DNA from: an uncultured Clostridia bacterium
GTDB lineage: Bacteria; Bacillota; Clostridia; Christensenellales; UBA1242
Length of the DNA: 36,420 nucleotides
Assembly: GCA_944381195.1 (NCBI GenBank)
Contig: CALWKH010000002.1
Location: 1 to 36,420 of the forward strand
Direction: 5' to 3'
The notes below the pieces were generated by a model. That model was not told the origin of the DNA. It made no database searches and worked only from the letters and a program-made list of their open reading frames with translations. Below, piece after piece: positions 3,226 through 31,090 of this stretch. Position 1 is the first letter of the stretch. Every line of letters starts with the position of its first letter. The position numbers and the translations under genes are program-made.

Positions 3226-3654
3226 AATTTCAAAGTTGTTCAGTATGTTTTTTAAAAAAGTTTTATGAAAAAATATTTTGAAAGCACAAAATTGTTTTGT
3301 GAAAGATTTGTGTTTTAATGTTTTATAAATGATTTTTTGAAAACATAAAATTGTTTTTGTGAAAAAGATTTTTGAAAAATAGTTTTTGCAAAAAGTTATG
3401 ATAAAACTTGCGTAAAAAATGCTCTGAAAAAAGTCATAATAAAATTTGTATGAATAAAATTCTGTGAAAAGCATATAAAAATTTTTGAAAAGTAGATTTT
3501 TGTTAAAGCTGTGTTTTCACTCAAACAAGACTAGAATGTTTTGGTGCTTTATTGTTAAAATGATTTACAATAATTTGTAATTATTTAATTGAAAAAGTGT
3601 TTGCAAAATTTGAGTTAAAATTTTTGCAATTTTTATGAAAAAATGGTGTAAATA

Positions 3655-3687
3655 TTAAAAAATGATGCGTTTTGCATCATTTTTTTG
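3655..3687. terminator. Bidirectional intrinsic terminator between convergent glyQS and CDS 3759-4529
   Basis: A-run (3655-3661), stem ATGATGC (3662-3668) / GCATCAT (3674-3680), 5-nt loop, T-run (3681-3687). It reads as hairpin plus U-tract on both strands. Confidence 0.6.
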
Positions 3688-3758
3688 TTGTTTTCTGTTA
3701 ATTTTTTATATTTTTAAAATTTATTACATTTTTATTTTCTTTGATAATTTCAGTGTTT

Positions 3759-4529
3759 TTATTCTTCACTTTTTTTGCTTGTTTTTGCTCTTGATTGAAT
3801 TTGCTCTTTTATTTCATCTGCTGATTCTGTTTTTGCTTGTTTTGTTTCTTTTGATTCGGTTTGTTGATTGCTGTGAACTTGTGTTTGTTCTTTTTTATCT
3901 TTTGAAATAATTTTTACAATCATATTTTGAAGTTCTTTTTCATCAATTAAGTTGTTTTCATAAAGGTTTTTAACAGATTCAATCTGTGCGGTGATTTCGT
4001 CTTTTTCTTCTTTTCTTTGCTGGTATTGTGTTACCTCTGGGGTTGGTGGAACATTTTGATAAGCATTATCTTGTGCTTGTGTGTTTTCTGTTTGAACAAA
4101 AGTTTGTTGTTGTGGCACGCTGTCTTTAAGGCAAAGCCCTGTGATAAAGAGTGCAAGGCAAGCAATGGATGTGAGCATTACAAAAACATTGATATATGCA
4201 ATCGCAAAGATAAGTGCAACTCCACTTAGAACAATCAAGCAAATGGATAGAGCAAGCACTGCTTTTTTACTGCCACCGTTTTTGTTGATTGACGTTAAAA
4301 CTATGCTTATGATAAAAGTTGAAATTGCCCAAAGAATGAAAGGAAGCATGATTACAAAAAGTGCAACCACCATTTCTGGTGTTATTGTTTCGCCCGTTAC
4401 TTCGTCAACAAGCCCAATGAGTGATGCAAGATCGCCAATTGTGAGAATTGCAAAAAAAAGATAGATTGCAGAGCAAACAAGGTTCACAATTGCACCAACC
4501 TTTATGGTTGTTTGTTTTGTTGAGGTCAT
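3759..4529 (-). CDS. 4-TM membrane protein with a SHOCT-like C-terminal segment and a K/E/Q-rich tail
   Basis: 256-aa ORF with an AAGGGGA SD and ATG at 4529. About four hydrophobic helices occupy the first 140 aa. The segment ITAQIESVKNLYENNLIDEKELQNMIVKII resembles the SHOCT short C-terminal domain pattern and is followed by a low-complexity charged tail. Confidence 0.75.
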   Translation of the reverse strand: MTSTKQTTIKVGAIVNLVCSAIYLFFAILTIGDLASLIGLVDEVTGETITPEMVVALFVIMLPFILWAISTFIISIVLTSINKNGGSKKAVLALSICLIVLSGVALIFAIAYINVFVMLTSIACLALFITGLCLKDSVPQQQTFVQTENTQAQDNAYQNVPPTPEVTQYQQRKEEKDEITAQIESVKNLYENNLIDEKELQNMIVKIISKDKKEQTQVHSNQQTESKETKQAKTESADEIKEQIQSRAKTSKKSEE

Positions 4530-5768: not shown

Positions 5769-6015
5769 GCGCAAATGATGTTTATAGCATATGTATTTTT
5801 GGAATAGTTGATTTTAACTTATATATATGCACAAAGTTATTGCTTTTATTTTAATGCTTGCTGTTTTTATTTTGTAATAATTTATTTTACTTGTTTTATT
5901 CAATTTTTTTCGCAAAATAAAGTGAGCAGTTTATTATTTTTTCCTTGTAAAGTTAATTTAAACTTGGTAACTGGATATTTTACGGACAGGTTAAGAAACA
6001 TGGTTTTTTCCCTTG

Positions 6016-6083
6016 AAACTTTTTTGGAGTCAAGATATGTTAAGGAAATTTTTTGTGGCATAAAAGGCGTAGCCCACAAAAAA
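6016..6083 (+). repeat. Structured intergenic repeat, copy A (degenerate)
   Basis: aaacttttttGGAGTCAAGATATGTTAAGGAAatttTTTGTGGCataaaaggcgtaGCCCACAAAAAA. It shares the T-run, GGAG, doubled GTyAAG motif and terminal GCCCACAAAA hairpin arm with copies B, C, E, F and G. Confidence 0.7.
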
Positions 6084-6153
6084 TGCTTTTAATTGTAGTA
6101 GTGATTTAATAAATAAGAAAGATGAAATTTTTTATATAACTTTATTTTTCTGT

Positions 6154-6214
6154 CAAACTTTTTTAAAGTCAAGACAGGTCAAGGAGGGTTTCTTGCGGGC
6201 GAAAGCCCACAAAA
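6154..6214 (+). repeat. Structured intergenic repeat, copy B
   Basis: caaacttttttaaAGTCAAGACAGGTCAAGGAgggtTTCTTGCGGGCgaaaGCCCACAAAAC. It has two GTCAAG motifs 10 nt apart, hairpin CAAGGA/TTCTTG, and hairpin GCGGGC-N4-GCCCAC. Confidence 0.8.
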
Positions 6215-6242
6215 CGCCCTCTGTTTTAAATATTTTTATATC

Positions 6243-6368
6243 GTGGGCAGAGTTCATAAAACACCCCCAACCTTTATATAAAAATACCGTGTGGGCAGAG
6301 CCCACAGAAAAAAACTATTTATAACGAATTTATAAAAAATATATGGTGTGGGTAAAACGCACAAAAAA
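6243..6368. repeat. Three short GTGGG-N3/4-CCCAC-type hairpin units following copies A and B
   Basis: GTGGGCagagttca (6243-6257, degenerate). GTGGGC-AGA-GCCCAC followed by an A-run (6291-6314). GTGTGGGTaaaaCGCACAAAAAA (6347-6368). Confidence 0.65.
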
Positions 6369-6929
6369 TGCTTGTTTTTAAAAAATTTTCTGGTTTAAAA
6401 TAAGGCATATATTTTAATATATTTGTTTAAATTTTTTTAATTTTGTAATATGTTTTTTGCTGAAATAATGTGGAAAAGTGGAAAATTTTTGTTTATAATT
6501 TTCAGTGTTTTTTAAATGAAAATAATGATTTAAAAAATAAAATTTATAAATAATTCGTTCAAAATTTCAATGCTTTTTTGCACTGCGACTTATTGTTTTT
6601 TTGTTATGTTTTTTCTTTTTAGCATTTTTGAATTTTGCAATAAAAGTTATAAATTTTTGCATTTTGATGCCAAACTTTTTGTGGGTATGTGCGTTTTTTA
6701 GTGTTTGCGTTCTTTTTTTATTATAAAAAATTGTGTCTTATAAAAACAAAAATTATTGCTGGTTTTGTGGCGTGCTCTTTATATTCCATGTTACATATGT
6801 TTTTGTGTGAAAGTTATATTTTAAGTTGTGAATTTTTTTGGCGTAAACATTTTTTACCTTTTTTGCGTGTGATATTGCTCATTTATTTTATATATTTTTG
6901 AAAAAATATATAAATATGCCTCATTTCCT

Positions 6930-7012: not shown

Positions 7013-7090
7013 ATGAAAACAAATGTCTTAAAAGCCTTTATGCTTATTATGTTCGTGGGGGTGATGAGTGTCTTTGGACTTTCCGCCTGT
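7013..7090 (+). other. Lipoprotein signal peptide (SPase II) of the giant protein
   Basis: MKTNVLKAFMLIMFVGVMSVFGLSAC has a basic N-region, a hydrophobic core and the lipobox L-S-A-C. The invariant Cys is residue 26 (codon 7088-7090). Confidence 0.75.
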
Positions 7091-10000
7091 GCGGGTCCAC
7101 GAGACGGCATGGCAATTGAAATTTCGTCCGACCAAATAATTGTGGATGAAAACGGAAATCGTCATATCACTCTTACCATTGAGTATGATGAACAAGGAAA
7201 TGTTGTTGCTGACAGCGGTCAAGCAACTCTTTCTGCACGGGTTATAAACGGCGACAGTTCTATTGACAGAACTGTTGAGGCTGTTGAAAGTTCAGAAACA
7301 CAACTTTTTGCCACAACAACTTATGACACAGAGACGCAGACAAACACCGTTACTATTAGGGCGGTGAGTGCCACTGCTGAAAGTGATTCGTCTTTTGTTA
7401 CAATCATGAGCAATGAGGACAACAATGTTTTTGAGCGTGTGTATGTTGAAGTGGTTCAAAAGGCAACCAGCATGGACTATGCTGACAGTCTTGATGTCAC
7501 AACTGATGCAAGTGGTGATGTGATTAACAACCTTGCAGTAATTAAAGATGTTCCTTTTGTCTTTGATACCGACAGTTTGTTTGAGTTTGGGACAGTTGGG
7601 ACAGAGAGTGCGGTTACTCCAAATATCGTTTATCAAATTGATTTAACGGGAGAAATCTATCAAAACGGAGATTCTATCACAATTGGCTCGAATCAAGATG
7701 TGAGTCAAATTACAATCACTGCTTTTGACCAAGATGACACAAGCAATACCGCCTTGCAAAAGACCTTTGTTCTTGATGTTTTAAGCAATGTTAGTGAAGA
7801 TGATGTTGTTATCAACCGAACAGACACCGAAACCTTGCAGGCAGACATTTCAAGTTTGACACTTCTAACTAGCCACACTGTTTCTTATAATAACGCAACC
7901 ATTGAAATTGTGGTTGAACAGAATGATGAATTTGATTACTCCTGTGAGTTTGTTAATTCTTCACAAAAAATTTATCTTGAAGTAAATTCACTTTATCCTG
8001 CGCAAAACAATGTGTTTACTTTGCAGGGGATTATGTCTTTGCCTGATGTGATTGAAGTTAACTTTATTGTTTCTTATGCGGGCATTTTGAACTCGCCAGA
8101 AGTTGTGAAAACTTTGGCAATAAATGTTGTTGACTATCCAACAGAAATTTTGATTAATGACACACCTCAGCAATATAGGCGTCTTACAACACTGCCAGCG
8201 TCGCCAGAAGAATATGTTGGTTATTACATTGCTGTTAATGATGACTATGTTTTGGTAACAGATGACAACTATTCAAGCCTTGGCATTGTTGCGGGATATA
8301 CTGTTTGCTATGCTCTTCAAGACTTTGAACTTGTTGTGTTTGATGCATATGAGGGAGAGGCTAATGGGGAAGAACTTGTTGTTGACCTTGGTAGATTTAC
8401 CATGGGATATGGGGAATACACAATTTCTGTTGATGTTGATAATGCAGACACGCAAACATTGACCTTTGCGCAAAATCTTTTAATCAATGGAGAAGCCATG
8501 CTTGTTGACGACACAACGGGCACCATTGAATATCTTGCTCCAACCTTTACAAGTGGTGACACCCTTGTTATTCGCCTTAAAGAAGGCTTTGTTGGTTCGG
8601 GCAGTTTGTCGCTTATCATAACGCCAACAAGTCAAGCGGACACGGATAATTTGCTTACAAGAAATTTACTTTTGCAATTTACAACTGGAATAACAGATAT
8701 TGTTGTGAGTGAAAATCAACTTTCTGCTGACGGCGAACTTTTGCTTGAAGTAAGTGAGGGGCAAACAGCAAACAGCACCAGAGACATTTCTTTCACCGTT
8801 TTGCCAGATGAGGCTTCAATGGCTGGAGCCTATGGAAGTTATGTTTCTGCATCTTCAAGTGATTCAAGTGTGGTTACGGTGAGTGAAGTTACCACAAATC
8901 AGGGTGTTGGAACCTTTACTGTTACCGCACACTCTGCGGGAGAGGCGGTTATAACACTTACTTCTCAAAACGGAGTTACAGAGGAAATTTATGTTTCAGT
9001 TATTGCAACTCTTAACACCTTTACTTTGAGTGCGGAAGAAGACGGGTCAAGTTCAAACACCACAAGCATAAGTTATAAAGATGACGCGATTGATTCAAGC
9101 AAACAAACAGTGGATACCATTGTGATTGAAGAGGGGAAGGCATTTAACCTTATATATGGAATATATCCATCAAACGCAACAATAACTGATATTTCATATT
9201 TTATTGGCTCTTTGGACGAAAACGGAGCAATTATCAGCACGCAAACGCCAATCAGTGAGTCAGATATCATAAACATTCAAGATTTCCAAAGACAAAATGG
9301 ACATGGAAGCAATGACCCAAACAACCATGGGACAGGTGTTGAATATGTTGTTGCGGTGATAAGTTTTGATGGACTCAGTGATGACGGAACACAAATTGTA
9401 ACCAAACAAATAACACAAACATTTGCTGTTGATGTTTATATTCCAATTAAAAGTTTGACAGCGAATGTGACAAGTTTTGAACTTCTTTCTGGTGGTGTGA
9501 GTGGATATTATAACCAGCAACAACAAGAGCAAGAGGTTGAACTGATTGCTTCGCCAGACGGCACAACGGTTACAACAGCAAGTGCGGTTTGGAGCATGTC
9601 GGCGGGTGCATCGTCATATATCACAGTTGAGGCAATTGACGGGTTCAGTGAGGAAGAAAATGGTGTTATCACAGGCTCAAAAGTTTTGATTAGGGCAAGT
9701 AACCAAATTGTTGGTGGAAGTCGTGAAGTTGAGGTTTATGCAACAATTCAAGACAGGGGTAGAGAACTTTCTTGCACCATAACAGTGACTGTTAATCCGC
9801 AAATTCTTGTTAGCACACTTACAATTGGAAACTATGACGAAACAAACGGTTTTTATTTTGAAGAAACACAAGGATTTTCAAGTCTTGACCAAGATGCCGA
9901 AGGAAATGAACTTGACAGGATTGCAACACTTAACAGCACAAGTCAAGAGGACAGTGCTGTTTCACAGGTTGAGTATCTTAACACCAGAATTCAATATTCT

Positions 10001-13000
10001 GGCAGTCAAATTCCAACAAACAGCAATCTTTCGTATTTCCTGTTTGATGCAACTGTTGACCAAGATGGAAATTGGGCTGTTTCAGACGCAAACAGGCAAT
10101 ACACATCGCACAGCACAAGCGTTTGGCTTGGGTATGATTATGCTCAAAGCAAATATTTTGTGACACCACTTGCTTCGGGATATACGATTTTATATATTGT
10201 TCCACAAGACAAACTTTCAAACGAAGAAAGTATTGTTACATATGAAGAACTTCAGGGTATTTCAAATAAACTTGAAGTTCACATCACAGTGGCAGACGGA
10301 TATACAACATATTACAGGCTTTATGATTCTGAGGATATTCTTGATCTTGCTGGCAACAGCAGTGCATGGGACAAGAACTATTATGTTATGAATGACATTG
10401 AAATTCGTGCAACATCAAATTGGACACCAATCGGGAACAGCACGCAGGCATTCACTGGAACAATCACATCATTTTCTGACACTGCAAGCACCATTTACGG
10501 CTTTAACCTCAATCTTGCCGAGGGCGTGCTTGAAGATGATAACACCTATGGAATTTTTGGGGTATTTAATGGAAGGCTTGAAAATGTTAACATTGATATC
10601 ACTAGTTTGAATATCAATTTCCCTGCTGATTTAACAGAATATTACATTGGAAGTCTTGCAGGGCGAGTTTTATCGGGTGCCGTTATTGAAGATGTTACCA
10701 TTCGAACAAGACAAGTGCAACTTGCTTCAAGTGTTCTTGGAATCTTTGCAAACTTCTATGTTGGGACAATTGGACTTAATGAGTCGGGAAATATCAGTAA
10801 TCTTTCAACTGACTTAACGGGTGTTATTGAAAGCACAAACGCAGAAACAATCAATTTGGTGATGGGTGGTGCGATTGGACTTAACAGAGCCACCTTTGCT
10901 GAGATAAGTGGGCTTGCCATTTCTGCGGAAACAAACATCACGGGTGCATATGAAAATAGTTTTTCTTCTTCCTCAGCCTTTGGTGGCGCAATTGGAAGAA
11001 ATGAAAGTGCAATTTCTCTTGTGTCTGCAAACGGAAGCATAATTTTGGGCGAAAGCACTTTGGCAAACGCACTGGGCGGACTTGTTGGTGTGTCGACAGC
11101 GGACATTTCAAATTCGACATCATCAGTCAGTCTTGCAAATGCAATCAATGTTGGAGGAATTGTTGGTGTTGCAACAGCAATCAACCTTTCAAATGTGACC
11201 TATGAAATCTATTCAACAAGCAGAGATATTGCTCTTTCTTCTGCCTTAACTGACCAAACTCAAAACATCTATGTTGGAGGACTTGCTGGACTTATTAACG
11301 GAAGCGCAAGCATTGCATATTCATATGTTATCTCTTTTGACAGCGACAAGGTTATTTCAAGCAGTCAAAATCTTGGTGGCTTGGTTGGAGGAAGTGCTGG
11401 CTCTCTTAACATAAATAATTCATTTTTCAGTGCAAACATTGATGCTCAAACGGCAAGAAATGTTGGTGGACTTGTTGGAACTGCGAGCATTGGCGCAACA
11501 ATTTCAAACACCTTTGTGACTGGAACAATCACAGGTGCAACAACATCAAATGCTGGGCTGTTTGTTGGAACGGTGGGTGCAAATTCTGGAATTACAACTT
11601 CATATAGTGCAATGACCGCAAACATTCAACTTGGTGGAGTGATAAGCGGAAATGTTACATATCGAAACACCATTATTATGCGCTATGGGGCTAATTGGAA
11701 CGAAGTCAGCATTTCTGGAATAACCTATCTTAACAGCACACAGATGTCCACGCAAAGCAACTTCACTGGATTTGACTTCACAAGCACTTGGGCAATTGCA
11801 GATTCTGCAACAAACAGCGGTCACCCAATTTTGTTAAATACTGACGGAAGTTACCTCTATCCAAACATCATAACATCTATTGTTGCAACGGCAAATTCTG
11901 GGCTTGAAAGTTCAAACATATTTAACACTTCTTCAAGCACACAAGTAATCATTGTTCTAAGCGATTTAGCGAACAATCAAATTAGACTTGCAGACATTTT
12001 CAGTTTTCTTGTTTCACCACAGCAAGACATCAGCACAGTGAGAGTGTCAGTATCTGCTGGAACATCAAGCAACGCAATATCAATTTTTGGTGGTTCAATG
12101 CTTGGAAACATCTATATTGAAGTTTTGGGCGTTGGTGTTACAAGTTTGACCATTTCGTCATCAACATCTTCTGCAAGATGTGTGGTTGAAATTGCTGTTG
12201 TTAACGGTTTTGATGATGTATATCTTTATGAAAGCATTGACAAAAAGCAAGAGGCAGATGCTGCAGATGATGAAGATGTGCAAGAAACATTTAACATCAC
12301 GGCGGGTTCAAGTGTTAACATTTTGACTGGCACAACAGAAGAATGGTATGCAGATTTTATTGACGCAAACGGTGACAGTTTGAACGGCAACAATGTTGGT
12401 GGTGGAATGATGTTCCTTTTGGAAGAGGGCTATATTACCATTGGCGATGACGATTTTTCTGAAAGAACATATTCTATTGAGCAAATTTTGAACATTTCAC
12501 TCGCTTTTTCTGGCGATGAACAAACAGTGTTTAGAATTCTCTCTGGTGACAATAACGCAACTGTGACCGAAAGCGCTGGAACATATACCTTTAACGCATT
12601 TGACTCATTCTGGGGTGAAATCGACGCAAACGGCGACTTTACCGCTGGAACGGTCACTGGCGAAAGAACGGTTACAAGAAGTCAAATTATAAGTGCTATG
12701 ACAAGAACGGTGCTTGGTTCGTCAAGTGGACTTATGGATAACGGACTTAACGAAATGAATGCAACAGAACTTGAGGAGCGTGCAAACAGTCTGCTTGATG
12801 TGTTTGCAAGATTTTTTGCAAATTCAAGCGTCTTCACTCAAACAATTGACGAACAAATGCACATTGTATTCTGTGTTGACAACAAGCCATATTTCACAGT
12901 TTCTCAAAGAGAAGGAACAAGCACTAGATTTGTGGTTGTGACAAAGGTGTTTATGAGTGTGGAAAACGACAGTTACATCTCGGTAAGTGGAACAAACAGA

Positions 13001-16000
13001 CATGAACAACTTGAAGTTACTTTGATTCCATATTATGTTGGTGTTTTCAGTGAAGTAAACTATTCATTATTATTTAACAAGAGTTTGACATTCTTTGTTG
13101 TGTGCTATGACGGAATTGAAAATGTTACAACAAATGTTGGTGGAACAGAGGAGAATCCAACCGAGATTGAACTTTCTCAAAACCTTTCATTTACCGTTAC
13201 CATGCAAAGCGACTCGCCATATGACGAGCAGGCAGGTTCACTTATCACAATAACCGACATCGACACGGGCGAAATTGTGGCGCAGAAAAACATTCTTGAT
13301 GACCTTTCAAGTGAGCTTATGGTTATGAACGGCTATGTGTTTGATGTTGACAATCTCACAGCAAGTGACGGAGTTATAACCGAGCAAGTGCTTTTTGGAA
13401 TTGATGACAACTTTAAACAACAATATAAGACTGCAAAGACCTTTGAAATCACTGTGGTGAACAAAATGTTTGTTGAAAACGGCAAGCAGATTGAAAGAAC
13501 TTTCTATGTGAAAATTAACACACAAAGCGTTCAATCAATTGATATTTTGCACTATGCCGATGCAGAACTTGAAGGCGAAAGTCAAACCACACCTGGAAAC
13601 TATTTAACAAACGCTGGTGCAGAGCCAACAAACACCATTATGGCGGGAGAATATGGACTTTTGAGAATTAATGTTTTCCCAAATTATGCAGACTTTGACC
13701 AAATTACAATAACATCTAATGTTGTTGAAAATGATGTGGTATCTTTTGTTCAACGAGTTGCCGAAACAATCAGTGTTAATGGTGCAAACCAAACAAGATA
13801 TTATTACTATGAAGACGGTGTTACATACATTGAAAATGGAATCATTGTGGCACCAGTCTCAAACAGAGATTTAACCTTTGATGGAAACATCTATCTTCAG
13901 ACCTTGATTGCAAAACAAACGACATCAGCCGCAGGTTTTATCATCACAGTTACCATTTCAAAAGATGGTATGCCAGATATTGTTCAAGAATTTAATCTGG
14001 CAGTTGACGCAACGGCAAATCTTATTATCTCTTATGATGCAACATTAAACCCAGAAAGCATTGAACCAGAGGCCTATATTGCTGTTGGAACAGGTGGAAG
14101 TGGCGAGACATATGCTTCAAACAGAAATGAGTTCACAATTACGCAAGTTGGAGTGTTTGATGTTGCTCCAAGTGTGAGCATCATTGATGATGAGACAGGT
14201 GGTAATGTTCAAATTGAAAATGTTGACGGAAGATATTATATTGTTGTTGGTAATGCAGACATTGTTGGGAGACATTTTACCGTTTCTGTTTCTGCGGTGA
14301 AATATGTCAATGGCTATCGAAGAACAATTTCTCGTGCAATGAACTTCACAATTGTTGACTATGTTCTTAAAGACGGCTCTATTGTTATTGATGAGGCACC
14401 AAACAATTCATTCAGTGAGCCTTTTGCTGACAACGCAAACTATAAGCTTACAATCAGAATCGACACCACAAAGATAAACGCAAACACTGCAATTTCTGGT
14501 GTTCAAACAAGAATCAATGCATTGCAAGAAGACTTTAATGACGGAACAATTAACCCTTGGTCTTTGCTTGATTCAAGTGGCAACTTGATTTCAATTGAGC
14601 AGGGTGGCACTTTGGGTGCAAGTTATTACTATGCAGTGACAAACGAACTTTCTGACCCTGTTTATGCTGCTGGAACAGCACCAACGGGGGAACAATTAAG
14701 CGAATATACCGTTATAAACAATGCATTCTATTTGCGCCTTGTTGTTGGCTCGGTTAACCTTGATGACAACGGTTGGTATATCTGTCCAGTTAGACAAAGC
14801 AGTGGCAACAGCATTGTTTTGAATGCTTTTAGTTTCCTATATACTGACAGTGGACTTTTGACAAATGAATTGCCAAGTGATGCGTCAACCTATTTCACAG
14901 TGCCATATCAAAACATTTCAATATCATTTATTCAACTTTCATCAACAGAAGAACCAATTCCAATTAACACCCTTAATGAACTTCTTTCAATGGAAGAGGG
15001 GGAACACTGTCGTTTGATGCAAGACATTGATGCGTCAGGAATATTGTGGACTCCTCTTAATGTTGCAATTTCAAGCCTTGACGGAAACGGACATACCATA
15101 ACAATTGGTCGTTTTGCAACTCTCACTGGAACAGAAACTTTACCAGCAAACTATGGACTTTTTGGAACGGTGAGTGAAAACACTTTGCTTAAAAACATAA
15201 CAGTTAAATATTCTGTTACTACTGAAGACGACGGATTAGACCAAACGGAAAGCACACATCTTAACTTTGGTGGAATTGCGGGAATCAATAACGGAATCAT
15301 TGTTAACTGTGAGGTTAACAGCATAAACAATCTTAACGCTGTAATCACAATCTCATCTCTGCCACTTGAAACAAATGTGTTTAATGTTGGTGGACTTGTT
15401 GGTAAAAACAACGGAGACATCTCTAACAGCCGTGTGGAGAAAATCAGCCTGACTGCTCGTGGAACGGTTGCTGGTTTTGCTGCGGTGAACAATGGTGCCA
15501 TTGCATCAAGTTATGCTGACAATTCAATCATCACAAACACCTCAACAACAAACACTGTTGGAGCAACTGCTGGCTTTGTTGGATATAACAATGCAAATGC
15601 TAGCATTACAACAAGTTATGCTGGCGGAACATATGCAACTCTTTCCACAAATGAAGACGGTGTGAGCAGCTTGAATGTTGATACAAGTGTTGGACTTAAC
15701 GGAAGAACGCAACAAATTGTTGCATCGGTTAACACTGGTGGTTTCCTATATTCAAACGCAGGAAGTGTTACGGACTGCTTTGCTGGTGTTGCACTTTCGG
15801 TTGAAGCGCAAGGTTCATCTTCGGGTGGATTTATGTATGAAAACCTTACTGGTGGAACGGTGACAAGAAGTTATTCTGTTTCATCTTCACCACAAAACAA
15901 CTATGCGCACACACCTTTTGTTGCTCCAAATTCAACTTACAGCGCTCTTAATACTGCTGAAGATGACGCTTTTGAAGATTGTTTCTATTATAACTCTGGA

Positions 16001-19000
16001 TATGGTCAAAATGGAATCAGTCTCACCGAGGCTTTGGGAATAGAGAGACGGACAATTGAGCAGTTTGTCAATGACAATAACGATTCAATTGGAGTGTGGG
16101 ATGCATACAGCATTTCAAGATATTCTTCTGGCGACAGAACTTCTGGGGAAGAATTTACAAGCGTTTGGACATTTTTAAACAGTAACAATGTTTATTTCAA
16201 CTATAACAACTTTAAAGCAAGCACTCAAGCACAAGGCACAACATCAAGACTTTTGGGACCAAGGCTTGTTTCTGCTGACATGATTGCAGTCGAAAGTTGG
16301 GACTTGGTTGGATATGACTTTGACCAAAAAGCATATGTTTATACTCGTGGAGATGTTAGCATTAATGGAACCAACCATGCTGTGACCGACCATTTGACAA
16401 TTGTTAATAATGACATCATTGTCAGCCCACACATCATCACAAGTGCAGAAGACCTTTATGATGCAATGACAGCAGATGCAGATACTCAAAATGATAACGG
16501 CATCATTGATGATTGGTATCGTTTGGCAGCGGACATTGATTTGACTGAACTTGTGGCTTTGGGATATGATATGACAACCATAAACACAGCAACCTTTGCT
16601 GGAAACTTTGAGGGAAATGGCTTTGAAATTTCTGGCATTGATATCTCGGTTAGAACGGGGGAGAGTGCGGGACTTTTTGCAACCATTGATTCACTTAACA
16701 GCAGCACAAATAACTATGCCAGTGTGCAGAACCTTAGTCTTGTTGTGCAAGAACTTGCAGCATCAAGCGTGTCAAAAGTTGGCGCTCTTGCTGGAACAAT
16801 CAACAATGCTGTTCTTGGAAACATTAGCGTCAGTCCAGACTCTAACACTGTTACCATTGTTGGATATAACTTTGTTGGAGGAGTTGCTGGAAAAATTATG
16901 GGAACAAGCAGGGCAAGCAATTTAACAAGTTCAATTTCTGTTACCGCAGTTTTTGGAAACTCGGCAACAAACAGCCTTGTTTATAACGAAGATTTGATGC
17001 GTTTTTATGGTTTGGAAGAAGAAGGATATAATAATGACGAAAATATTTTGTCATATGCTGGTGGAATTTTTGGTGTGGTTGACTTAACACCAATCATTGA
17101 AGATAACTTTATCATTTCAACCGATGAATATGAAGAGTCAAGACTTGCAAACCTGACGGTAACTGGTGAAAGCAAGATTTCTGGAACTACAGTCGGCGGT
17201 GTGATTGGTCTTCTTGGAACATCATCACATGTTACCAACATCAAAAAACTTGCAGAAAATGGCAGTGAACTTAAAGGAAGTAGATATGTTGGTGGAATTA
17301 TTGGTGAGAATCATGGATACATCAACTTTGCACAACTTCTTTATACCGAAGAGGTGCAAGATAGAATTAACTCATCACAATATGTTGGTTCTATTGATAC
17401 CGAAGCAGACTTTGACCTTTTTGTTGGAACAAGCAAAGCAATTGGTGGACTTATTGGAATCAACTTTGGTTTCACAAGTGATATGCAAAGCGGAGTTGTG
17501 GACAACAGTCAAAACAGAGTGGCAGTTAAAAACAGCAACGCTCAAATTGCTGGTGGACTTATTGGTATTTCTGTTGGTGGGGAAATCACAGCATGTTTTG
17601 CTACGGCAAGTGTTCGAAGTGCAACAACTGGAATAACTGGTGGAGCATTTGGTGTGATTGGTGGTGTTGAGAATTTCAGCAGTGATGTTCAAGACCCATT
17701 TGAAGCAATTTCAAACAAAACAGCCTATGAAGGAATGCAATATTCATCTCGTTTTACCATTGTTTCTGACATAGTTGCTCTTAACAACTGGTCATACAGC
17801 GACTATAATATTTTGCTTAACATTCAAGAAAATGGATATCTTGGTGGCTTTGTTGGTGTGATTTACAGTGAAAGAATCAGTGAAGCTCACACAAGCATGA
17901 CAAATGAAGAATATGAAGAGTTGGTAGCCGAAGGTGTGGGAATTTCGGCTAGCAAAGAGGATAATTTTTATGTAAGTACAATCTATAATTCTCAACCACA
18001 AAAAACATCAAACACATCAGATGGAGCAGTTATTTCGGCTATTGGTGGTAGAAGTTCTTCAACAGATTTAAGTGATGTTGCAACAGGACTGACAAGATAT
18101 GAGATGTGGACATACAGTTATGAAAACAACAGCGGAAATGAAGATGTTAATACTCAGGTTGACAGAATGTTTGAAAACTGGCCTGTTTATGACTATGGAG
18201 TATTGATGGATGAAGAAAGTGAAACATTTAAGATTATAAATTATGATAGTTATGGTGTTCCGTTCTATAATCCACAGCAAAACCCAAACAGAATTGAAAT
18301 TTGGACAGTTGAAGATTTCTTGGATATGGAAGACCTTTTAGATGCAAATTATGTTTTAATGGCAGACCTTGATTTCACTGGTGTTGACTATACTCCAATT
18401 GGAACCTCGTCAAGACCATTCACTGGAACATTCACTGGAACACATTATGATGAAGCGACTAATACAAACATAACTCATGTTTTATATAATATTACAATGA
18501 CCACTGATCTAACATATAATACACCAGCGGTTGGAATTTTCGGCTATACATCAGGCGCAACCATTCAAGATGTTGTGATAAATAACATCAACTTCTCATG
18601 GGTGCCTTCGGTGTTCAACTCAACTGCTGCAGCAGGCTTTTTGATTGGTATTGCAGAGGACACAGAGGTTTTAAATGTTCAAATTGTGGAAGATCACAGC
18701 CGTGTTGATGCAACCATAACAGACAATTCATTTAGCATGAATGGAGTAACATACACCATTTCTGGAAACAGCATTTCAGGAAGTGATGGTTCAAGGGCAA
18801 CCATAACAGAAAACTCTTTCACACTTAATAATAAGCACTATCGCCTTGACACAGCAAGAAATGAAATCAGTCAAGTTTGGACAGGTGAAAATGTTTTGCG
18901 TTCAAGCGCAAACGCTGTTGGTGGTTTGATTGGAAATTACAGCCTTAAAAGACAAAGCAGTGCAAACTTGCAAAACAGTTTCATTGAGGCAGATATTGAA

Positions 19001-22000
19001 CTTTCACAGGTAACAGACCAGCGTATTCCAATTGATTATCAAGGTGGAAGTGGCCAATTCATTATTGCTGGATCCACATATACCATTGACTCACAAAATA
19101 ATGTTAGTGATTCAAGTGGATTTAGAATTGGAAATGCTTCTTCACCACTTAGAATTGGTGAATATATTTGTGTTAAAGAAAGCGGAGAAAACTATATGCT
19201 TGTTTCAGCGGCAAGTTTGCCAGAATCTTCTGCTGGTGGATTTATTGGATATGTTGAAACAAACACAAACAATGTTTTAAGCATAATTGGTTCTTATTTC
19301 CAAGGTAACATAACATCCTATCGTGATTCACAACTTAACCTTGGTGGTTTTGCAGGAAAGACTGCAAATACAACATATAATGAAAACTTTGTTGATGCAA
19401 CAATTAACATAAGTTATATTTCCAACCTTCTTTCTGCGGGTGGTTTTGCTGGAACGCTTATCAATTCAAATGTGAACAATGCAACAGCACATGGTGACTT
19501 TAACATAACGGTTGATTCTAACACAATGGATATCTATATTGGTGGTTTTGTGGGCAGAGCGACTGGAAGAATTACAAATGCTGTGACATATGAAAACATT
19601 AACTTTAATACCACTCAAAATTGGACAGCCACAGCAAGTGGAACAGACACTCAAATGGTTGCAGGCTTTGCGGGAAGTTTTGGAACAAACATGGATTCCA
19701 TTGAACTTATTAACATTGCTTCTCTCAGCACAATCAAAAATAACACACTTATGATTAACACTGACGGATTTAGTTTTGAAACACCAACCATAAGTGATGT
19801 AAACGGAACTTTTGCAACAAATGTTTATTTTGATGAATATCTTGCGTTGGCGGGAGACATCAACAATTTCAGCAGACAAAGTTGGGACTTCATTTTGGGC
19901 AATGGTGAGGTTGTCTATAACTATGTTGATGCATCAGATGCTTTCTCTGTTTTGAGCATTGGCAATAACAAATATCCGCGCGTTAACACAAACACAGGGC
20001 TTGTTACTGCACGCTATCAAGAAAAGTTTGATTCAATCTTTACAAACGCTCTTTCTGGAAGCAAGATTAACCCAATTCAAGTTTCTTCGGTAGATGACTT
20101 TAATTCTATGACAGGAGTTGTTGGAAACTGGTATATTCAATCAAACAACCTAAGTAATATTCCATTACATCAAACAAAAACGATGTTGGGCTTCTATAAC
20201 GGTGCAGGCTATACAATCACAGCGCAAAGATATGATTATATCTATGGAAGTGAGCAAAGCCTTATTGACATGGGTGTGTTTACCACAGTTGGTGATAAGG
20301 GTGTTATAAGTGGCGTAAATGTTGACTCAGTTATCTATCTTGGACTTCTTGCAACCGATGAGGGCAGAACAAATATTGGCTTTATTGCATCTGTTGTCAA
20401 TGAGGGCGGAATTGTGTTTGGAAGTGCATCTACAGGTCAAATCACCATTGTGTCAAGTCAGCAGACATCAAACATTATTGGTGGTTTGGTTGCGGTTAAT
20501 GACGGTCAAGTGTTCTCTTGTGCATCTAGCGTTGATATAACAGTTAACACAACAGGAACTGGGGAATATTTTGCTGTTGGAGGAATGGCTGGATATACCG
20601 AGGGTGGACACTCATATTATTCATATAGAGATTCATATTACAGTGGTTCAATCATTAACAACATCACATCAAGCAGTCAAGCGCTTGTTGGTGGAATAAC
20701 GGGAATGGTGGTTGGAGCAACAAGCACCACAGTTCAGGGTGCAAGTCTTTCAACATTTTTCATGCGCAACACCTATTCAGCAGCAAGTATCACGGGTAAC
20801 GGTGGAATGCTTGTTGGAGACATCATGGCAACACAAGAGTTTGTTGTGAATGTTTATTATGTTGACAAGATTAAAAACCCAGTTCAAGCAAAAACAATTG
20901 CAAATTTTGGAATTGGTTTCAATATAACAAATCAAAGAAATAACACACAAAACATCACAAGTGGCTTTGAATACAGCACAGGCTCATATTCAACGCCGAT
21001 GACCGAGGGGCTTTGGTCAAACACTGTTAACTTTAACTTTGGTTTGCCACATTTAAGAACAGAAACAAACTTGGTTGACACAGGAATTGGAACACCAGAA
21101 AAACCATATCTTCTTAACAGTGAAGGACAACTTGCTTGGGCTCTTAACAATGGTGGAACTGCAAATGTTAACTATTATTCTTTGACAAGAAATCTTGACT
21201 ATGGAATTTTGACAAACATTGACAGTTTGATTACCTCGGTTACCTTTAATGGCTATTTGCTTGGAAATGGATATTACATTTCAAACAGCACTGGCGTTTT
21301 GGTTGGTGCAAACAGAGGAGCAATCACTCAGGTTGGTTTTGACGGAACAATCACAGCAAGTGTTTTGGTAACAAACAATAACAGTGGAGTTGTTTCGGAA
21401 ATCTATACCACAAGAAGTGGAGACTCTGGCATTATTGCTTCTGGCACGGGAAGTGTTGTTGACTGTTTGACATATAACTATGCAATAGATAAAAATGGTG
21501 TTGCACGCACAAAAACTTCGGTGCAATATGCAACAACGCTTAATGATGAAAACTTTGACTATATTTCAACTTGGGTATTACAACCAACATCATCAAGTGC
21601 AACGGCAGCACTGACAACAGGTATGCAAAATCTTCGTGTGTTTGTTAACAGTTTGGAAAATGTTGACATCACAGGCATAACAGGAACTGCTGATGACACA
21701 CTTACACAAAACGCAGAAGGCTTTAATGAATATACATTACACATAACAACCAAAGAACAATATGCCGCAATTTTGCAATATATTATTAGAAGCGGTATGA
21801 ACGGCGAAAGTTATATCATAAATCTTGAAGCAGATTTGGATATAACAGGTCTTAAAATGGGTGATCTTGGAGACGGAAAAGACATTACTATTAGCATAAA
21901 TGGAAATAACCACACAATCTATAATGTGATTCTTGATAACAACGCATCAAGTTCATATGCTGGAATCATTGGTGAGTGGTATAGTGGAACAATTAGCGAT

Positions 22001-25000
22001 ATCAAGTTTAACCAAATGAATTTGATGACCACAACGACAGGTGGAATTGTTGCAGGAAGAAATAATGGTGGAGTAATCAGCAACATCACAATTACAAACA
22101 GCATTGTTGGTTCGGCAGTAGAATCAGCAGTTGTTGGAGGAATTGCTGGTTACAACAGTGGAACAATTGAAAAGGTTTCCATGAGTGATATAACTCTTAT
22201 TGCAAACGGTGGAACGGTTGGTGGTGTTGCAGGAAACAGCAGTGGAATCATTACAATCAGTTCGCTTGACTTAGAGGTTCTTCAAGGCACAACTCCACTC
22301 ACAGCAGTGGGTGCAGTTGCTGGAATTACTGAGGGAACAAGTAATAGCATTACTGTTGCTGGAAATGTTAATTTCTTTATTGACAGCCCAGTTAACATTG
22401 GTGGTGGAATTGTTGGAAAAGCATCAAGCGGTGGTGAAATCACAATCAATCAAGGTGCGACTGTAACCTTTGCAAACGCTGGTGGAACAAGTATTGGTGG
22501 AATTGTTGGAAATATCAGCGGAAGCGAAGCAATCAACGTTTACATTCTTGGTCAAAGCACGCTTACAACAACTTCATCAACAAACGTTGGTTCAATCATT
22601 GGTTTGATTGACGGTCAAGCCGAAACAACAATCTATATTGAACAAGGAAACCTTGCGCTAAGTGTTAGCGACAGCGAAAATGTTGGTGGTGTTGTTGGGT
22701 TCAGCCAGACAAGCAGTTTGACAATTCGAACACAAGATTCAACAGACTTCACAGCAGATATCACAATCACCTCTCTTGGTGGCAATGAAAATGTTGGTGG
22801 TGTGATTGGACGAAACACAAACACAGTAACAGGCTTTACAAATACTGGTAGCATTAATATCTCTGTTACAGACACCGATGTTTCAACAGGAGGTTTTGTT
22901 GGACATAACAGCGGAACCATTGAGGTAAATGTTTCTAATGTTACAATTACTGGCAATGCTTCATATGTTGGAGGAATCACCGGCTTTAACACCAGTAACG
23001 CAACAATCAGAGAAACAACATCTAACAACATTAATATTACGGCAGTAGACTATGTTGGAGGAATTGCTGGATATAATGATGCAGAAATTTATCAAGTAAC
23101 AGTTTCAAACCTCACAATTTCTGCAAACAGTTATGTTGGAGGAATTGCTGGTCTTAATGACGGAGATATTGGAAGAGATGGAGAGGACTATCGTATTCAA
23201 CTTAACAACATGAGCCTTTCGGCTTTAAACAGAGTTGGAGCAATCACTTCAATCAATAACAACACAGTTATGAATGTTATGATTTCCGACCAAAGTGGAG
23301 CAATCACTGTTACCTATCAAGGCGGACTTGATAGTGAAGAAAGTGGTGCGGGCTTTATGATGTCGGTTAACAATGGCTATATAAGCGGAATAACAGCAAC
23401 CTTTACGAGCACTGGAACAAGACTTGTTCTAGACAGTGCAATCACACACAACATTGGTGTTATAACGGGAGTTAACGCAAACAGCATAACTGCTTCAAGT
23501 GTTACAGGATTTACCTTGGCACTTAACAGCAATGTAACAGACTCGGGTCTTATTGGACTTAACTTCTCGAATTCACTTGTTGGCGGGGTTACTTCATCAA
23601 ACTTTGTTATAACTGGTGGAAGTGAAAATCTGGGACTTTTGGTTGGACTTAACCAAGGAACAGTCAGTGATTCATTTGTGAACAACTCACAAAACACCAC
23701 ATGGAACTTATCGGGTGTTACAGGTGCGGGTGCGGTTGGAAAGAATGAAAGTGTGATTTCTGGTCTAACAATCTCGAACAACCTTGTTATAACTGGAAAC
23801 GGGCAAAGTGTTGGTGCAGTTGCCGGAATTAACGAAGGCACAATCGGTGGCATTAACGCCGTTAGCAGTGTTTCAATTTCTGGAGATAGTGACATTGGTG
23901 GCTTTGTTGGACACAGCAGTGGCACAATTACTATTGCAAGCAACGCATCAGCAACAGTTACAAGCGTTACTGTGAGCGGTAACACGAATATTGGTGGCTT
24001 CTTTGGGTATAACGAAGGCAGTTTCAGAGGTAATGGTGAAGATAACGTTTCACAAAGCAATGTTTCTGGTGCAAGTAATGTTGGTGGCTTTGTTGGATAT
24101 AATGCAAGCAATTCTTCTATCACAAACGAAGGTATAACTGATGCAAATGTTTCAGGTGGAACGGTATCGGCATCTGCCGTTGGAGATGTTAGACTTGGAG
24201 GTCTTGTTGGATACAATACTTCAATCATCACAACTTCAACCGTTTATGGAACAAATGTCACAAGTTTGGTTGGTGAAGATTATGCAAGCATAACAGGTGG
24301 CTTTGCTGGTGAAAACGCAAGTGGAGCAAGCATCACAAGTCCAACTGTTACCTTCTCAAGCACAAGCAACATTATTGCAGGCGACTATGTTGGTGGAATT
24401 GCTGGACGCAATGGTGGTAGCATCTCAAGTGCAACCGTTTCAATTGACTCTGGAATTGTTACAACCAGCAAGACAATTGAAAGTGCAGGCGACTATGTTG
24501 GTGGAATTGCAGGAATCAACACGGGAACAATAAGTGGAACAACCACAGTTGCAACGGGCAATGTCTTTGATGCCTATGGTATCATGGGTGGAATTGCTGG
24601 TGAAAACTCTGGAACAATCACGGGAACGGTTCGAACAGGTGCAAACCTTGATATGCATATTGTTAGCGGAACAGGTAGTTCTGGAGACCGTAGACACTAT
24701 ATCTTTGGTGGAGTTGTTGGGCGCAACACTGGAAGCATTAGCGCAAGCATAACAATCAGTTCAACAAACATCAACGGTGGAATTATTCTTGGTGGAGTTG
24801 TTGGACTTAATGACGGAGGCAGTCTGCCATCAAGTGCATCTGGTGTTACCTTTGCTAACGATTTAACAATTACATTCTATGGTGCAATTCTTACAACTTC
24901 TGGAGATAATCAATATCTTGTGTTTAACAGCAGTCGTCCATGGTTCAGCGCGCTTTCTTCGATCACAAGCGGACAACTTTATGCTGTTTCATATGGAAAG

Positions 25001-26242: not shown

Positions 26243-26326
26243 AATCTTTATAAAAAACAGATGCAATTTTTAGCAAATTTTTAGGTTTAGTTTTTTTGAA
26301 AATAATTTTTAGTCTGTTTTTAAATT

Positions 26327-26437
26327 GATTTATGTTCATATTTATATTTATATTTTTACTTTGATTTATATTTACATTTAAATTTGTGTTTACATTTATA
26401 TTTACATTATATTTATACTTTTTGTTTATATTTACTT
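26327..26437. repeat. Degenerate TTTAYA tract with three 30-bp phased units
   Basis: The head TTTATATTTAC(A) occurs at 26365, 26395 and 26425, an exact 30-bp period. Looser TTTATA/TTTACA hexamers run from about 26327. Confidence 0.55.
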
Positions 26438-26440
26438 TTA

Positions 26441-27161: not shown

Positions 27162-27228
27162 TTTTTTTTGTGGGCTGACGCCCGCAAGGAGTGAAACTCC
27201 TTGACCTATCTTGACACAAAATAAACTT
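27162..27228 (-). repeat. Structured intergenic repeat, copy C (inverted orientation)
   Basis: The reverse complement reads ttttgtGTCAAGATAGGTCAAGGAGtttcaCTCCTTGCGGGCgtcaGCCCACAAAAAAAA. Confidence 0.85.
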
Positions 27229-27304
27229 AGTGGACAAAAGTAATATGTAAACTATAACCAAGTTCACTTTTTGTTTTTAATTATATAAATTTTTATATCA
27301 AGAC

Positions 27305-27330
27305 TTTTTTGTGGGTTTCCCACAGAAAAA
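27305..27330. repeat. Short hairpin unit D (T6-GTGGG-TTT-CCCAC-AGA5)
   Basis: ttttttGTGGGtttCCCACagaaaaa forms a hairpin of about 12 bp once the flanking T/A runs are included. Confidence 0.65.
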
Positions 27331-27398
27331 GGTTTTAAAACAATGTTTTTACACAAGCAGAAAAATATTAAAAAGTTTGTTGGTCATTTTTTTACTCA

Positions 27399-27464
27399 CT
27401 TAACTTTTTTGGAGCCATAAATCAGGTCAAGGAAATTTGTTCCTTGCGGGCGTCAGCCCACACA
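27399..27464 (+). repeat. Structured intergenic repeat, copy E
   Basis: cttaacttttttGGAGCCATAAATCAGGTCAAGGAAatttgTTCCTTGCGGGCgtcaGCCCACACA. Confidence 0.85.
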
Positions 27465-27523
27465 TAAATTCTTTTCTTTTATCAAACATTTTTTCTTTAT
27501 TTTTACGCTTGTTTTTTTTTGCT

Positions 27524-28285: not shown

Positions 28286-28355
28286 TTTAAAGTTTAGTCG
28301 CTTAAAATTGTTAAATGTGAAGCGAAGATTTGTATTTTATTAAATATATTATTTT

Positions 28356-28420
28356 AAAAATCTTGAAAATTCTTAATTAAAAAACTTCAAAATTCTTATT
28401 GAAAAACTTGAAATTTTTTT
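28356..28420. repeat. Three tandem units of about 23 bp, about 480 bp upstream of spo0A
   Basis: aaaaatcttgaaaattcttaatt / aaaaaacttcaaaattcttattg / aaaaacttgaaattttttt. Confidence 0.5.
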
Positions 28421-28746
28421 CATTTAAAAATCAAATAAAATTATGTTAACTTTTCTAAAAAAATTGTCATTTAATTTTTGATTTTTAATTATAGGTTGTT
28501 TATAAAATTTTTGTTAATTTTTTTGTTGCGGTATTTTAGTTTTTAAAGAAAACAAAACTGTTTATGATATCAATATAATTTAACAGATTTTTTATAAAAA
28601 TGCATTTTCTTGTTAAAATTTGCAAGAAAGATATAAAAAATGTTGGGCAAAGCCACAAAAACAAAGTTCGTGAAAAACAAACATCAAACAATAAAATCTG
28701 CATAAAAATTGAACATTTATGCCTTTTAATTTATTAAAATATTCCC

Positions 28747-29936: not shown

Positions 29937-30509
29937 GTGGAAAACAAACAAGAAGGAATGCAATATATTCGTTGTCCACGCTGTGAACTTAACTTCATTT
30001 TAAAGAAGGATAAACTTTGTTCTGTTTGCAAGCGAGAAATAGAGTCAGCATATAAAAATGATGAAGATGATGGAGATATTGACCTTGGTGTTGATTTTGA
30101 AATCTGTCCGATTTGCAAGACAAACTATATCAGAGAGGACGAGGATATGTGCGCTTCTTGCCAAAAGGAACGAGAACTTGACCGTGCCCTTAATGGTGGT
30201 GATTTGCCCCCAGAAGAAGAGGATTTTGACAACTATGAAAACGACACCTTGAAAGATGATGATGAGTTTGGCGACATGATGGGCATTTCAGACGAAGATG
30301 ACCTTGGTGCTGACCTTGACGACCTTGATATTGACATTGGCATTGATGACGATGTTGATTTTGATGATGACGAACTTGATGATTTGGACGAAGATTTTGA
30401 CGATGATGATGACGATGATGATGACGAGGAAGACGACTTTGACGATGACCTTGACGACCTTGATGACGAAGATGACGATGATGAAGAGGACAACAAGAAA
30501 AAGAAATAG
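29937..30509 (+). CDS. Duplicated zinc-ribbon protein with a roughly 100-aa poly-Asp/Glu tail
   Basis: 190-aa ORF with a GTG start 9 nt after GGAGG. It has two copies of a CPxC-x11-CxxC module (C13/C16/C28/C31 and C57/C60/C72/C75). An almost pure D/E/L/F tail follows and ends in KKKK. ATG 29958 is an alternative start. Confidence 0.8.
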   Translation: MENKQEGMQYIRCPRCELNFILKKDKLCSVCKREIESAYKNDEDDGDIDLGVDFEICPICKTNYIREDEDMCASCQKERELDRALNGGDLPPEEEDFDNYENDTLKDDDEFGDMMGISDEDDLGADLDDLDIDIGIDDDVDFDDDELDDLDEDFDDDDDDDDDEEDDFDDDLDDLDDEDDDDEEDNKKKK

Positions 30510-30840: not shown

Positions 30841-31090
30841 GATTTTTCATCTTGCAAGCACATCTTTTTGTTTTTTCCTGTTGTAAGAATTTTTTGTTTT
30901 GATTTTTTCTGGCAGGCAATTTTTTATTTTAATTTGATTTTTCCGTCTTGCAAAATTTCTGTTAAATTTTATTTTGGTTGCTTTTTAAAATCTTTTGTTT
31001 TAATTTTTATTTTTTCTTTAAAAGCATTTTTTGTTTTAAATTTATTTTTTCCGTCTTGCAAAATTTCTTTTTAAATTTTATTTGGCTTGC
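30841..31090 (+). repeat. Three direct repeats upstream of polA
   Basis: GATTTTTCATCTTGCAAG at 30841, GATTTTTCCGTCTTGCAAAATTTCT at 30936 and ATTTTTTCCGTCTTGCAAAATTTCT at 31044. A 23-nt exact match links 30938-30960 and 31046-31068. Flanks are similar for about 50 nt, and the spacings are 95 and 108 bp. Confidence 0.6.

Follow-up and report, generated by a model that had tools for sequence, protein, structure and literature searches.

Intergenic repeats in the window

The window analysed here is the whole 36,420-nucleotide stretch of contig CALWKH010000002.1 from an uncultured Clostridia bacterium. It encodes Spo0A, a DUF1256 (YyaC-like) protein, CvpA, PolA, a class II aminoacyl-tRNA synthetase and a 6038-amino acid repeat protein. 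Its intergenic DNA, about 6.3 kb of the 36.4 kb, carries a family of small repeats, six copies of which (A, B, C, E, F and G) were listed with their coordinates and orientations in an earlier, sequence-only reading of the window. That reading took them for a wholly intergenic repeat family with BIME-like clustering and not for AT-rich noise. All of this was borne out, and the motif counts are far beyond chance. The core TCCTTGCGGGC, with at most one mismatch, occurs four times in the window against 0.15 expected from shuffles, CTTGCGGGC-N4-GCCCACA exactly four times against 0.07, and GTCAAG-N4-GTCAAGG, with at most two mismatches, four times against 0.62. A strict palindrome, G[CT]GGG[CT]-N3-4-[GA]CCC[AG]C, is present six times in the window, each time between genes, and in none of 200 shuffles. 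Short (about 20–40 nt), imperfect, extragenic palindromes in repeated form are a trait of REP/BIME sequences, and further palindromes were found in contigs of other strains.

The PolA of the window is 91–95% identical to that of a fragmentary metagenome-assembled genome (MAG) labelled uncultured Christensenella sp. and 64–65% identical to those of rumen Clostridia MAGs. Exact matches to the window proteins were found only on ENA and Logan metagenome contigs. On the basis of these findings and of the encoded genes, the host is an uncultured, AT-rich (about 33–36% G+C), spore-forming rumen/gut Clostridia lineage with unusually long intergenic regions.

Each unit of the family begins with a head of about 45 nt, which comprises yTCAAAC-T6-GGAG, two GTCAAG half-sites (GTCAAG-N4-GTCAAGG), a hairpin (hairpin 1) and the core TCCTTGCGGGC. 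Between one and four modules come after the head, and every module consists of a GC-rich palindrome (GYGGGY-N3-4-RCCCAC) and an A-rich tail of about 33 nt. Two tail types, ..CACCCCTTCATTGTAAAAAAGTTTTATTG.. and ..CTCTGTTTTAAATATTTTTATA.., recur across loci. As in BOX elements, an internal module is thus repeated in tandem, in a number that varies between loci and strains. The earlier reading described neither this head-(palindrome-tail)n architecture nor the strain polymorphism and the C–E inversion presented below. The unit of 65–75 nt that it delimited is present, but is only part of a larger modular element, A..B and F..G being composites of about 300 nt. Likewise, its 'CACCCC' tail exists but belongs to the repeated tail module of about 33 nt, and its 'short GTGGG-N3-CCCAC hairpins' are, together with the second palindrome of G, palindrome-tail modules. 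The double GTCAAG motif is exact in B and C and has one mismatch each in A and F, but has no match in E and G. A stretch at 28643–28659, formerly counted as a degenerate remnant, is a doubtful member of the family because the sister species conserves it without the palindrome.

A..B in cluster 1 and F..G in cluster 3 are colinear over about 300 nt, with 75% column identity. Both A–B and F–G are direct pairs whose heads lie 139–140 nt apart; C and E, 216 nt apart, form the sole inverted pair. In both direct pairs one head has a decayed core (A and F), while the two cores of the inverted pair are intact.

Distribution of the family

A profile hidden Markov model (nhmmer) and a covariance model were built from 11 head sequences. 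The search set of 483 kb included about 50 kb from this species and about 400 kb from relatives, among them the syntenic regions of species with 65–95% identical proteins. Seven heads at four loci, with 48–82 bits, were found in the species. Six are those of the window, and the seventh lies downstream of degV on L266, one of the contigs of the same species that were assembled from other samples (L-numbers; genes 97–99.9% identical to those of the window). No head was found in the roughly 400 kb from relatives, where nothing scored above 21 bits.

Pattern scans of larger collections returned no member. In 185,579 species-representative genomes nothing but chance matches, one of them inside a coding sequence, came up with the specific patterns, and a loose first pattern gave, among the matches listed, apparent chance matches in GC-rich sequence. 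The JGI metagenome scan yielded ten chance matches in GC-rich contigs and no member, the IMG/VR scan chance matches only, and a BLAST search of the 305-nt block of cluster 3 against plasmids and phages no match. A search for paralogous loci through a lineage-specific 594-amino acid protein recovered only its ortholog, a neighbouring paralog and one short contig. The family has been seen only in this species.

Strain polymorphism at the repeats

The strain contigs differ precisely at the repeats. Cluster 1 is a 511-nt block (5860–6370, forward strand) made up of a leader of about 150 nt, heads A and B with a spacer between them, and more palindrome-tail modules, with the 8-bp direct repeat AATGCTTG at its flanks. 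Head A (6008–6086, forward strand; covariance model, 48.6 bits) has the degenerate core TTTGTGGCA... in place of CCTTGCGGGC. Head B (6147–6216, forward strand; 72.1 bits) includes GTCAAGACAGGTCAAGG at 6168–6184, a hairpin 1 in which 6180–6185 pairs with 6190–6195, the core TTCTTGCGGGC at 6190–6200 and a palindrome at 6195–6210. Past head B lie three palindrome-tail modules (6246–6362, forward strand), with the degenerate gtgggcagagttcat at 6246–6260, GTGGGCagaGCCCAC at 6291–6305 and GTGGGTaaaaCGCAC at 6348–6362, which brings the palindromes after head B to four, one of them degenerate. The tail that follows B (CTCTGTTTTAAATATTTTTATA) is found again behind a palindrome in L124. L266, with the junction ...ttttaatgctt/gtttttaaaaaa, lacks the entire block, which is present in L287; contig L288 ends exactly at 5860. 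Cluster 1 is located about 650–1150 nt upstream of the start of the open reading frame (ORF) that encodes the 6038-amino acid protein.

Cluster 3, downstream of polA, is a 305-nt block (33896–34200, forward strand) that has the 13-bp direct repeat TAAAAAATTTTTG on both sides and runs from head F through a spacer, head G with its tail and a second palindrome to an AT-rich end. Head F (33896–33972, forward strand; 55.8 bits) has the degenerate core CCCTGCGGAC and, as noted earlier, a replacement terminal hairpin, TTGAGC-gga-GCTCAA. Head G with its tail and second palindrome extends over 34035–34155 (forward strand), with the core at 34083–34093, a palindrome at 34088–34103, the tail CACCCCTTCATTGTAAAAAAGTTTTATTG and the palindrome GTGGGTggaACCCAC at 34138–34152. 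The outer sequences of unit G, AAACTTTTTT and AAAAAAGTTT, are 10-nt AT-rich inverted ends that can close a hairpin of about 90 nt.

Three alleles were found at this site. The first has the polA terminator, F and G (window, L122 and L129), the second the terminator only, as ...gtaaaaaattttt/aaaaaactt... (L123 and L124), and the third G only, with neither F nor the terminator (L125, L128 and L130). In L127, G is also downstream of polA, across a scaffold gap. The sister-species contig L144 has the empty arrangement, and the block of cluster 3 is therefore a gain in this lineage.

The modules are also amplified and copied. Behind the head at degV in L266 lies a direct array of a 50-nt palindrome-tail module, repeated 3.1 times with 96% matches. 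Since this module is 93–95% identical to window positions 34113–34155, about 45 kb away, modules must have been exchanged or copied between loci that far apart. At least five structural alleles were found for the spacer that holds C and E. An extra palindrome module lies beside C in most strains, and in L124, L128 and L281 E is followed by a 125-nt replacement that includes another palindrome. In L284 everything between the palindromes of C and E is lost and one palindrome is left, and in L279 the whole C–E region is deleted between two copies of ATATAAA.

Many contigs and scaffold gaps (L273–L278, L288, L127 and L287) stop exactly at heads or palindromes, as expected for repeated or heterogeneous sequence; the family is thus a main cause of assembly fragmentation for this organism.

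The blocks invite comparison with MITEs, defined as small (50–500 bp), AT-rich, non-coding and highly base-paired elements with terminal inverted repeats and a constant target-site duplication (PMC3049150, PMC10969869). Mobilised by a DDE transposase, such elements would leave fixed target-site duplications. With lengths of 300–500 nt (305 and 511), AT-rich non-coding sequence in which no ORF has a family match, and units that fold, the blocks agree with MITEs in size and base pairing. The site of cluster 3 is empty in the sister species, unit G has its 10-nt inverted ends, and direct repeats of about 8 bp are found at the blocks: AATGCTTG, AYATAAA(t/r), and AATTTTTG, which is contained in the 13-bp match. 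An 8-bp duplication common to all three blocks is possible. Nevertheless, direct reading reveals terminal inverted repeats in none of the three polymorphic blocks, the direct repeats are unequal in length, and there is no insertion sequence, known or visible, whose ends match. Moreover, at 33% G+C repeats of 7–13 nt are common and also mark slippage deletions. We therefore regard a classical MITE as improbable.

An invertible segment between heads C and E

Heads C and E bound a segment (27182–27452) that is present in both orientations. Head C (27162–27228, reverse strand; 81.6 bits) is the left arm, with its palindrome at 27170–27185, hairpin 1 at 27185–27203 and the core at 27180–27190. Head E (27399–27466, forward strand; 70.1 bits) is the right arm; in its hairpin 1 27428–27434 pairs with 27440–27446, its core is at 27441–27451 and its palindrome at 27446–27461. 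The inverted arms proper (27163–27207 and 27424–27468) are 45 nt long and 84% complementary, and CCTTGCGGGCGTCAGCCCACA (21 nt) is identical in both. A perfect palindrome, TGTGGG-ttt-CCCACA (27310–27324), with a T-run and an A-run at its flanks, is found in the middle of the segment; its loop is ttt or ttc depending on the strain and its stem is kept.

Orientation was compared between assemblies, not inside one clonal population. The segment is unflipped in the window, L122, L123, L124, L128, L131, L275 and L281, and flipped in L273, L274 and L282, contigs that come from three samples and two sequencing projects. Over 271 nt L273 aligns in reverse to 27452–27182 (99.6% identity), its flank being in forward orientation, and L282 spans both flipped junctions. 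Flipped and unflipped segments differ at 0–1 positions; inside the segment, the flipped L282 has the same sequence as L123 and L131, which are unflipped. At least two flank haplotypes carry the flipped state, and the one with gaag/tgac loops is also found unflipped, in L124. The near-identity of the internal sequence on these different flanks indicates that the flip is recent and probably recurrent. An assembly artefact was considered and rejected: the stretch identical in the two arms is just 21–26 nt, shorter than the final k-mer expected of these assemblers, and the flip recurs in three assemblies from two projects.

L273 also locates the exchange. Its outer palindrome loop is of the C-locus type (tctgcctttc) and the adjoining hairpin 1 of the E type, which places the exchange within the 11-nt GCCCGCAAGGA. 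This sequence is the reverse complement of TCCTTGCGGGC, the most conserved motif of the family.

Inverted repeats and the presence of both orientations define an inverton (PMC11892184), and in this descriptive sense the C/E pair is one. The main rival reading, clearly less probable than the interspersed-repeat reading given below but to be taken seriously, is that the heads could be sites of a dedicated, trans-encoded site-specific recombinase, which would bind two palindromic arms and make the exchange in the core TCCTTGCGGGC that lies between them. C and E would then form a programmed phase-variation switch in the divergent yyaC-like/cvpA region, and further or former sites would be represented by the other heads, for example those upstream of the gene for the giant surface protein. 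Such a switch is favoured by the near-identical internal sequence of the two orientations, which are found on at least two flank haplotypes, by the confinement of the L273 exchange to the 11 nt most conserved in the family, by arms near the upper end of the 10–40 nt reported for inverton repeats (PMC11892184), by intact cores in the inverted pair alongside one decayed core in each direct pair, and by assemblies that break at the arms. The flipped segment, however, sits between the yyaC-like gene and cvpA, which are not typical phase-variable genes. Its only promoter-like site is a weak 9/12 sigma-70-like match, TTAAAA-18-TATAGT, whose direction changes with the flip, and cvpA has its own extended -10 promoter, TGnTATGAT, outside the segment, as read from the sequence. 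Most heads are direct or solitary, and the deletions and duplications at palindromes of the C–E locus are not explained by a conservative recombinase. In agreement with the earlier reading, which saw no transposase in the window, the scanned ORFs of the window and the strain-specific ORFs include no transposase or recombinase domain. The 220-amino acid strain-specific ORF of L124 and the ORFs of 302 and 334 amino acids were examined as candidate recombinases and rejected on this ground.

Tentatively, one may go further and see the heads as a dispersed att-like network for a single recombinase that acts in trans, recognises DNA folded into twin hairpins and carries out strand exchange in TCCTTGCGGGC, an extension to which we give a somewhat lower probability. 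If it were true, intergenic segments would be flipped and, at other sites, excised or amplified genome-wide, including upstream of the 6038-amino acid surface protein, and the decayed cores of A and F would have been left by selection against deletions between direct sites. Readings of the units as integron attC sites, dif/Xer sites or ECF promoters were rejected by direct reading of the sequence.

Folding and transcription signals of the units

Hairpin 1 was earlier said to keep its pairing while its sequence changes. The pairing is indeed kept, in 96% of cells as against 51–66% when the partner is slid by 1–3 columns, but only the apical pair is altered on both sides, all remaining changes being from G-C to G-U. 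As an argument from covariation this is weak, with the observed score reached by 31 of 500 shuffles. All 12 non-Watson-Crick cells are G-U on the sense strand and none is A-C; in the terminal palindrome of the head the asymmetry is reversed, with C-A on the sense and G-U on the antisense strand. When folded as RNA, B (z = -4.6) and G (z = -2.2) are more stable than shuffles, whereas A, E and F are no better. Taken together the structure tests support conserved pairing, short of statistical proof of selection on RNA structure.

Among the options raised from the sequence was a multicopy structured RNA. It would be a small RNA or a cis-regulatory leader, with hairpins under selection as RNA. The paired hairpin 1 with G-U but no A-C on the sense strand and the folding of B and G speak for it, and so do the direction of C and E, each towards its adjacent gene, and the GGA read in several hairpin loops. 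Yet Rfam gave no match at gathering thresholds and, at E-values up to 5, none that overlaps any unit. Every palindrome is T-rich before and A-rich after and can therefore be an intrinsic terminator on neither strand, and the promoter and terminator scans found no signals that consistently frame the units. F and G are downstream of polA in a convergent spacer, the units are absent from the orthologous spacers of the sister and related species, and they are dispensable among near-identical strains of the species itself. With double changes in one pair only and the C-A mismatch in the terminal palindrome on the sense strand added to this, we consider the RNA option very improbable. For the same lack of a consistent promoter and terminator, and the A-runs behind the hairpins, a small RNA gene was rejected. 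So was a CsrA-type sponge with GGA in its loops; GGA counts are not convincingly above composition and there is no transcription unit.

The palindromes could also be REP-like sequences or IS200/IS605-type subterminal hairpins (PATE), which a Y1/HUH transposase (RAYT or TnpA) with its gene at another place in the genome would move in single-stranded form. In keeping with this, the blocks lack terminal inverted repeats, and hairpin 1 has G-T but no A-C mispairs on one strand, as expected of a single-strand substrate. The palindrome begins GTGG on one strand, and REPs reportedly start with GT[AG]G. The extragenic location of these short, GC-rich, imperfect palindromes in clusters and tandem arrays resembles REP/BIME sequences and tandem REPINs (PMC3337134). 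Closely spaced inverted doublets, on the other hand, are not the rule: the distance from C to E is 216 nt, and the remaining pairs, like the degV array, are direct. The left flanks of the three blocks (AATGCTTG, ATATAAA and AATTTTTG) share no target tetra- or pentanucleotide, and all three blocks have direct repeats, which peel-and-paste transposition does not make. The IS200/IS605 end remnant that the earlier reading allowed for is thereby disfavoured, and we think transposition of this kind on the whole unlikely.

Neighbouring features

The 6038-amino acid ORF (7013–25129) has a lipoprotein-like signal peptide (..FGLSAC) and at least 19 diverged VGG(I/L)(A/V)G..N.G.I repeats, and is presumably a giant surface protein. 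Between cluster 3 and the end of the window a putative small RNA gene of about 90 nt (34232–34352; 1556–1680 in L144) has a perfect sigma-70 promoter, TTGACA-18-TATAAT (12/12), and a strong terminator, GAGGGAAGAtttcTTTCCTC followed by T8. Its promoter, body and terminator are conserved in the sister species, and it has no Rfam match.

Several tandem repeats of other kinds are present. An AT-rich array based on ATTTAT (26286–26440, 17.8 copies) adjoins the DUF1256 gene, and L124 has an 809-nt insertion at this array (3307–4116) with a 220-amino acid ORF that has no Pfam match. The long spacer upstream of spo0A contains about three copies of the 23-nt unit TTAAAAAACTTGAAAATTCTTAA (28353–28430), and the spacer upstream of polA about 2.2 copies of a 108-nt unit (30919–31158), whose length varies between strain contigs. 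An ORF of 334 amino acids with an HExxH motif and no Pfam family (356–1360) is found in the window and in L223 and is missing from L266 (4681–5627) according to its gene table. Positions 29937–30509 encode a 190-amino acid protein with an N-terminal zinc-ribbon and a long Asp/Glu-rich tail (GAT/GAC repeats) that is conserved in the sister species.

Discussion

The closest architectural parallel to the family is BOX, which is built as boxA-boxB(n)-boxC, with a module repeated in tandem and with length variation between strains (PMC3049150). Like the BOX elements of S. pneumoniae and S. suis, the family is an interspersed repeat of a Firmicute with an internal module of about 45–50 nt in variable tandem number; it is strongly base-paired, intergenic and often clustered, varies in length and presence between strains, and has an uncertain mobilising enzyme (PMC3049150). 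The likeness is one of architecture; the genome-wide pattern scans had no streptococcal matches. Unlike BOX, which has terminal inverted repeats and target-site duplications, the blocks have no inverted ends; their repeated module is a GC-rich perfect palindrome with an A-rich tail, and their inverted pair flips DNA.

REPINs are tight inverted doublets known mostly from Proteobacteria. With REP, BIME and REPIN sequences the family shares short, GC-rich, imperfect extragenic palindromes in clusters and ordered tandem arrays, and the GTGG start on one strand. Folding of such sequences is thought to occur in single-stranded DNA, they are recombination hot spots, and tandemly repeated REPINs have been described (PMC3337134). 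The family differs in that a non-palindromic head of about 45 nt precedes the palindromes and most pairs are direct.

RecV of C. difficile and Mpi of Bacteroides each serve several invertons. The C–E segment resembles gut invertons of this kind (RecV switches, Mpi/Tsr promoters) in being an intergenic segment of about 270 bp with inverted repeats, both orientations and a motif shared with other loci. In contrast to them it has no invertase nearby and no clear promoter inside, its arms are long and hairpin-bearing, members of its repeat family are found in direct pairs and tandem arrays too and show indels, and its orientations were seen across assemblies. The mycobacterial MIRUs are likewise dispersed intergenic units of 40–100 nt in strain-variable tandem number, but they are not built on GC-rich palindromes and are not known to mediate inversions. 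They sit inside operons and can carry small overlapping ORFs.

The reading that we favour, with moderate confidence, is that the family is a lineage-specific, small, modular, non-coding interspersed DNA repeat of BOX/BIME-like type, whose palindromes are recombination hot spots and one pair of which is an inverton. Among the options offered earlier, 'REP/BIME-like or MITE-like' fits best. A DNA repeat is preferred to a structured RNA because the units are dispensable, absent from the spacers of relatives, unframed by transcription signals and rearranged as DNA. The family acts at the DNA level, and the AT-rich intergenic DNA that it entered is that of a single species. Breaking and rejoining of DNA takes place at the palindromes and core of the family: blocks are gained and lost between strains, modules are tandemly amplified and copied between loci, and the inverted heads C and E exchange in the core, flipping a 270-bp segment. 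In the mechanism that we envisage, the palindromes would extrude as hairpins or cruciforms in single-stranded or supercoiled DNA, and the extruded hairpins would be processed by a trans-encoded enzyme or by template switching in replication. A hairpin-recognising HUH/Y1 transposase or a site-specific recombinase, neither of which is encoded in the window ORFs scanned, would be candidates for this enzyme. The elements may be mainly selfish or neutral, with incidental effects on neighbouring genes.

Several points weigh against the interspersed-repeat reading. The copy count comes from about 50 kb of the species, and mobilisation in trans is something that we infer, neither a transposase nor a recombinase having been found. 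The three polymorphic blocks, whose ends are set by empty sites, have no terminal inverted repeats, and direct repeats of 8 bp (AATGCTTG), 7–8 bp (ATATAAA, AYATAAA(t/r)) and 13 bp (TAAAAAATTTTTG) fit slipped-strand deletion or microhomology-mediated insertion as well as transposition. An exchange window of 11 nt is too short for RecA-type homologous recombination, and the recurrent inversion with its exchange in the core thus points to a dedicated recombinase and to a family that is possibly functional and not parasitic. One decayed core in each direct pair, as opposed to the intact inverted pair, also fits selection on recombination sites. Finally, the G-U without A-C pairs of hairpin 1 hint at strand-specific folding, as RNA or as single-stranded DNA.

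The family has no detectable relative in the collections searched and comes from a poorly known, uncultured Christensenellales-like lineage. Within a few kb this one small family gives rise to presence/absence variation, tandem amplification, deletion and a recurrent 270-bp inversion. It explains the fragmented metagenome assemblies of the species, and its units can be used as strain-typing markers; annotators should be aware of them, because several reading frames stay open through the units. If a dedicated enzyme does act on the family, the 11-nt core with its two flanking hairpins would be a new recombination site.

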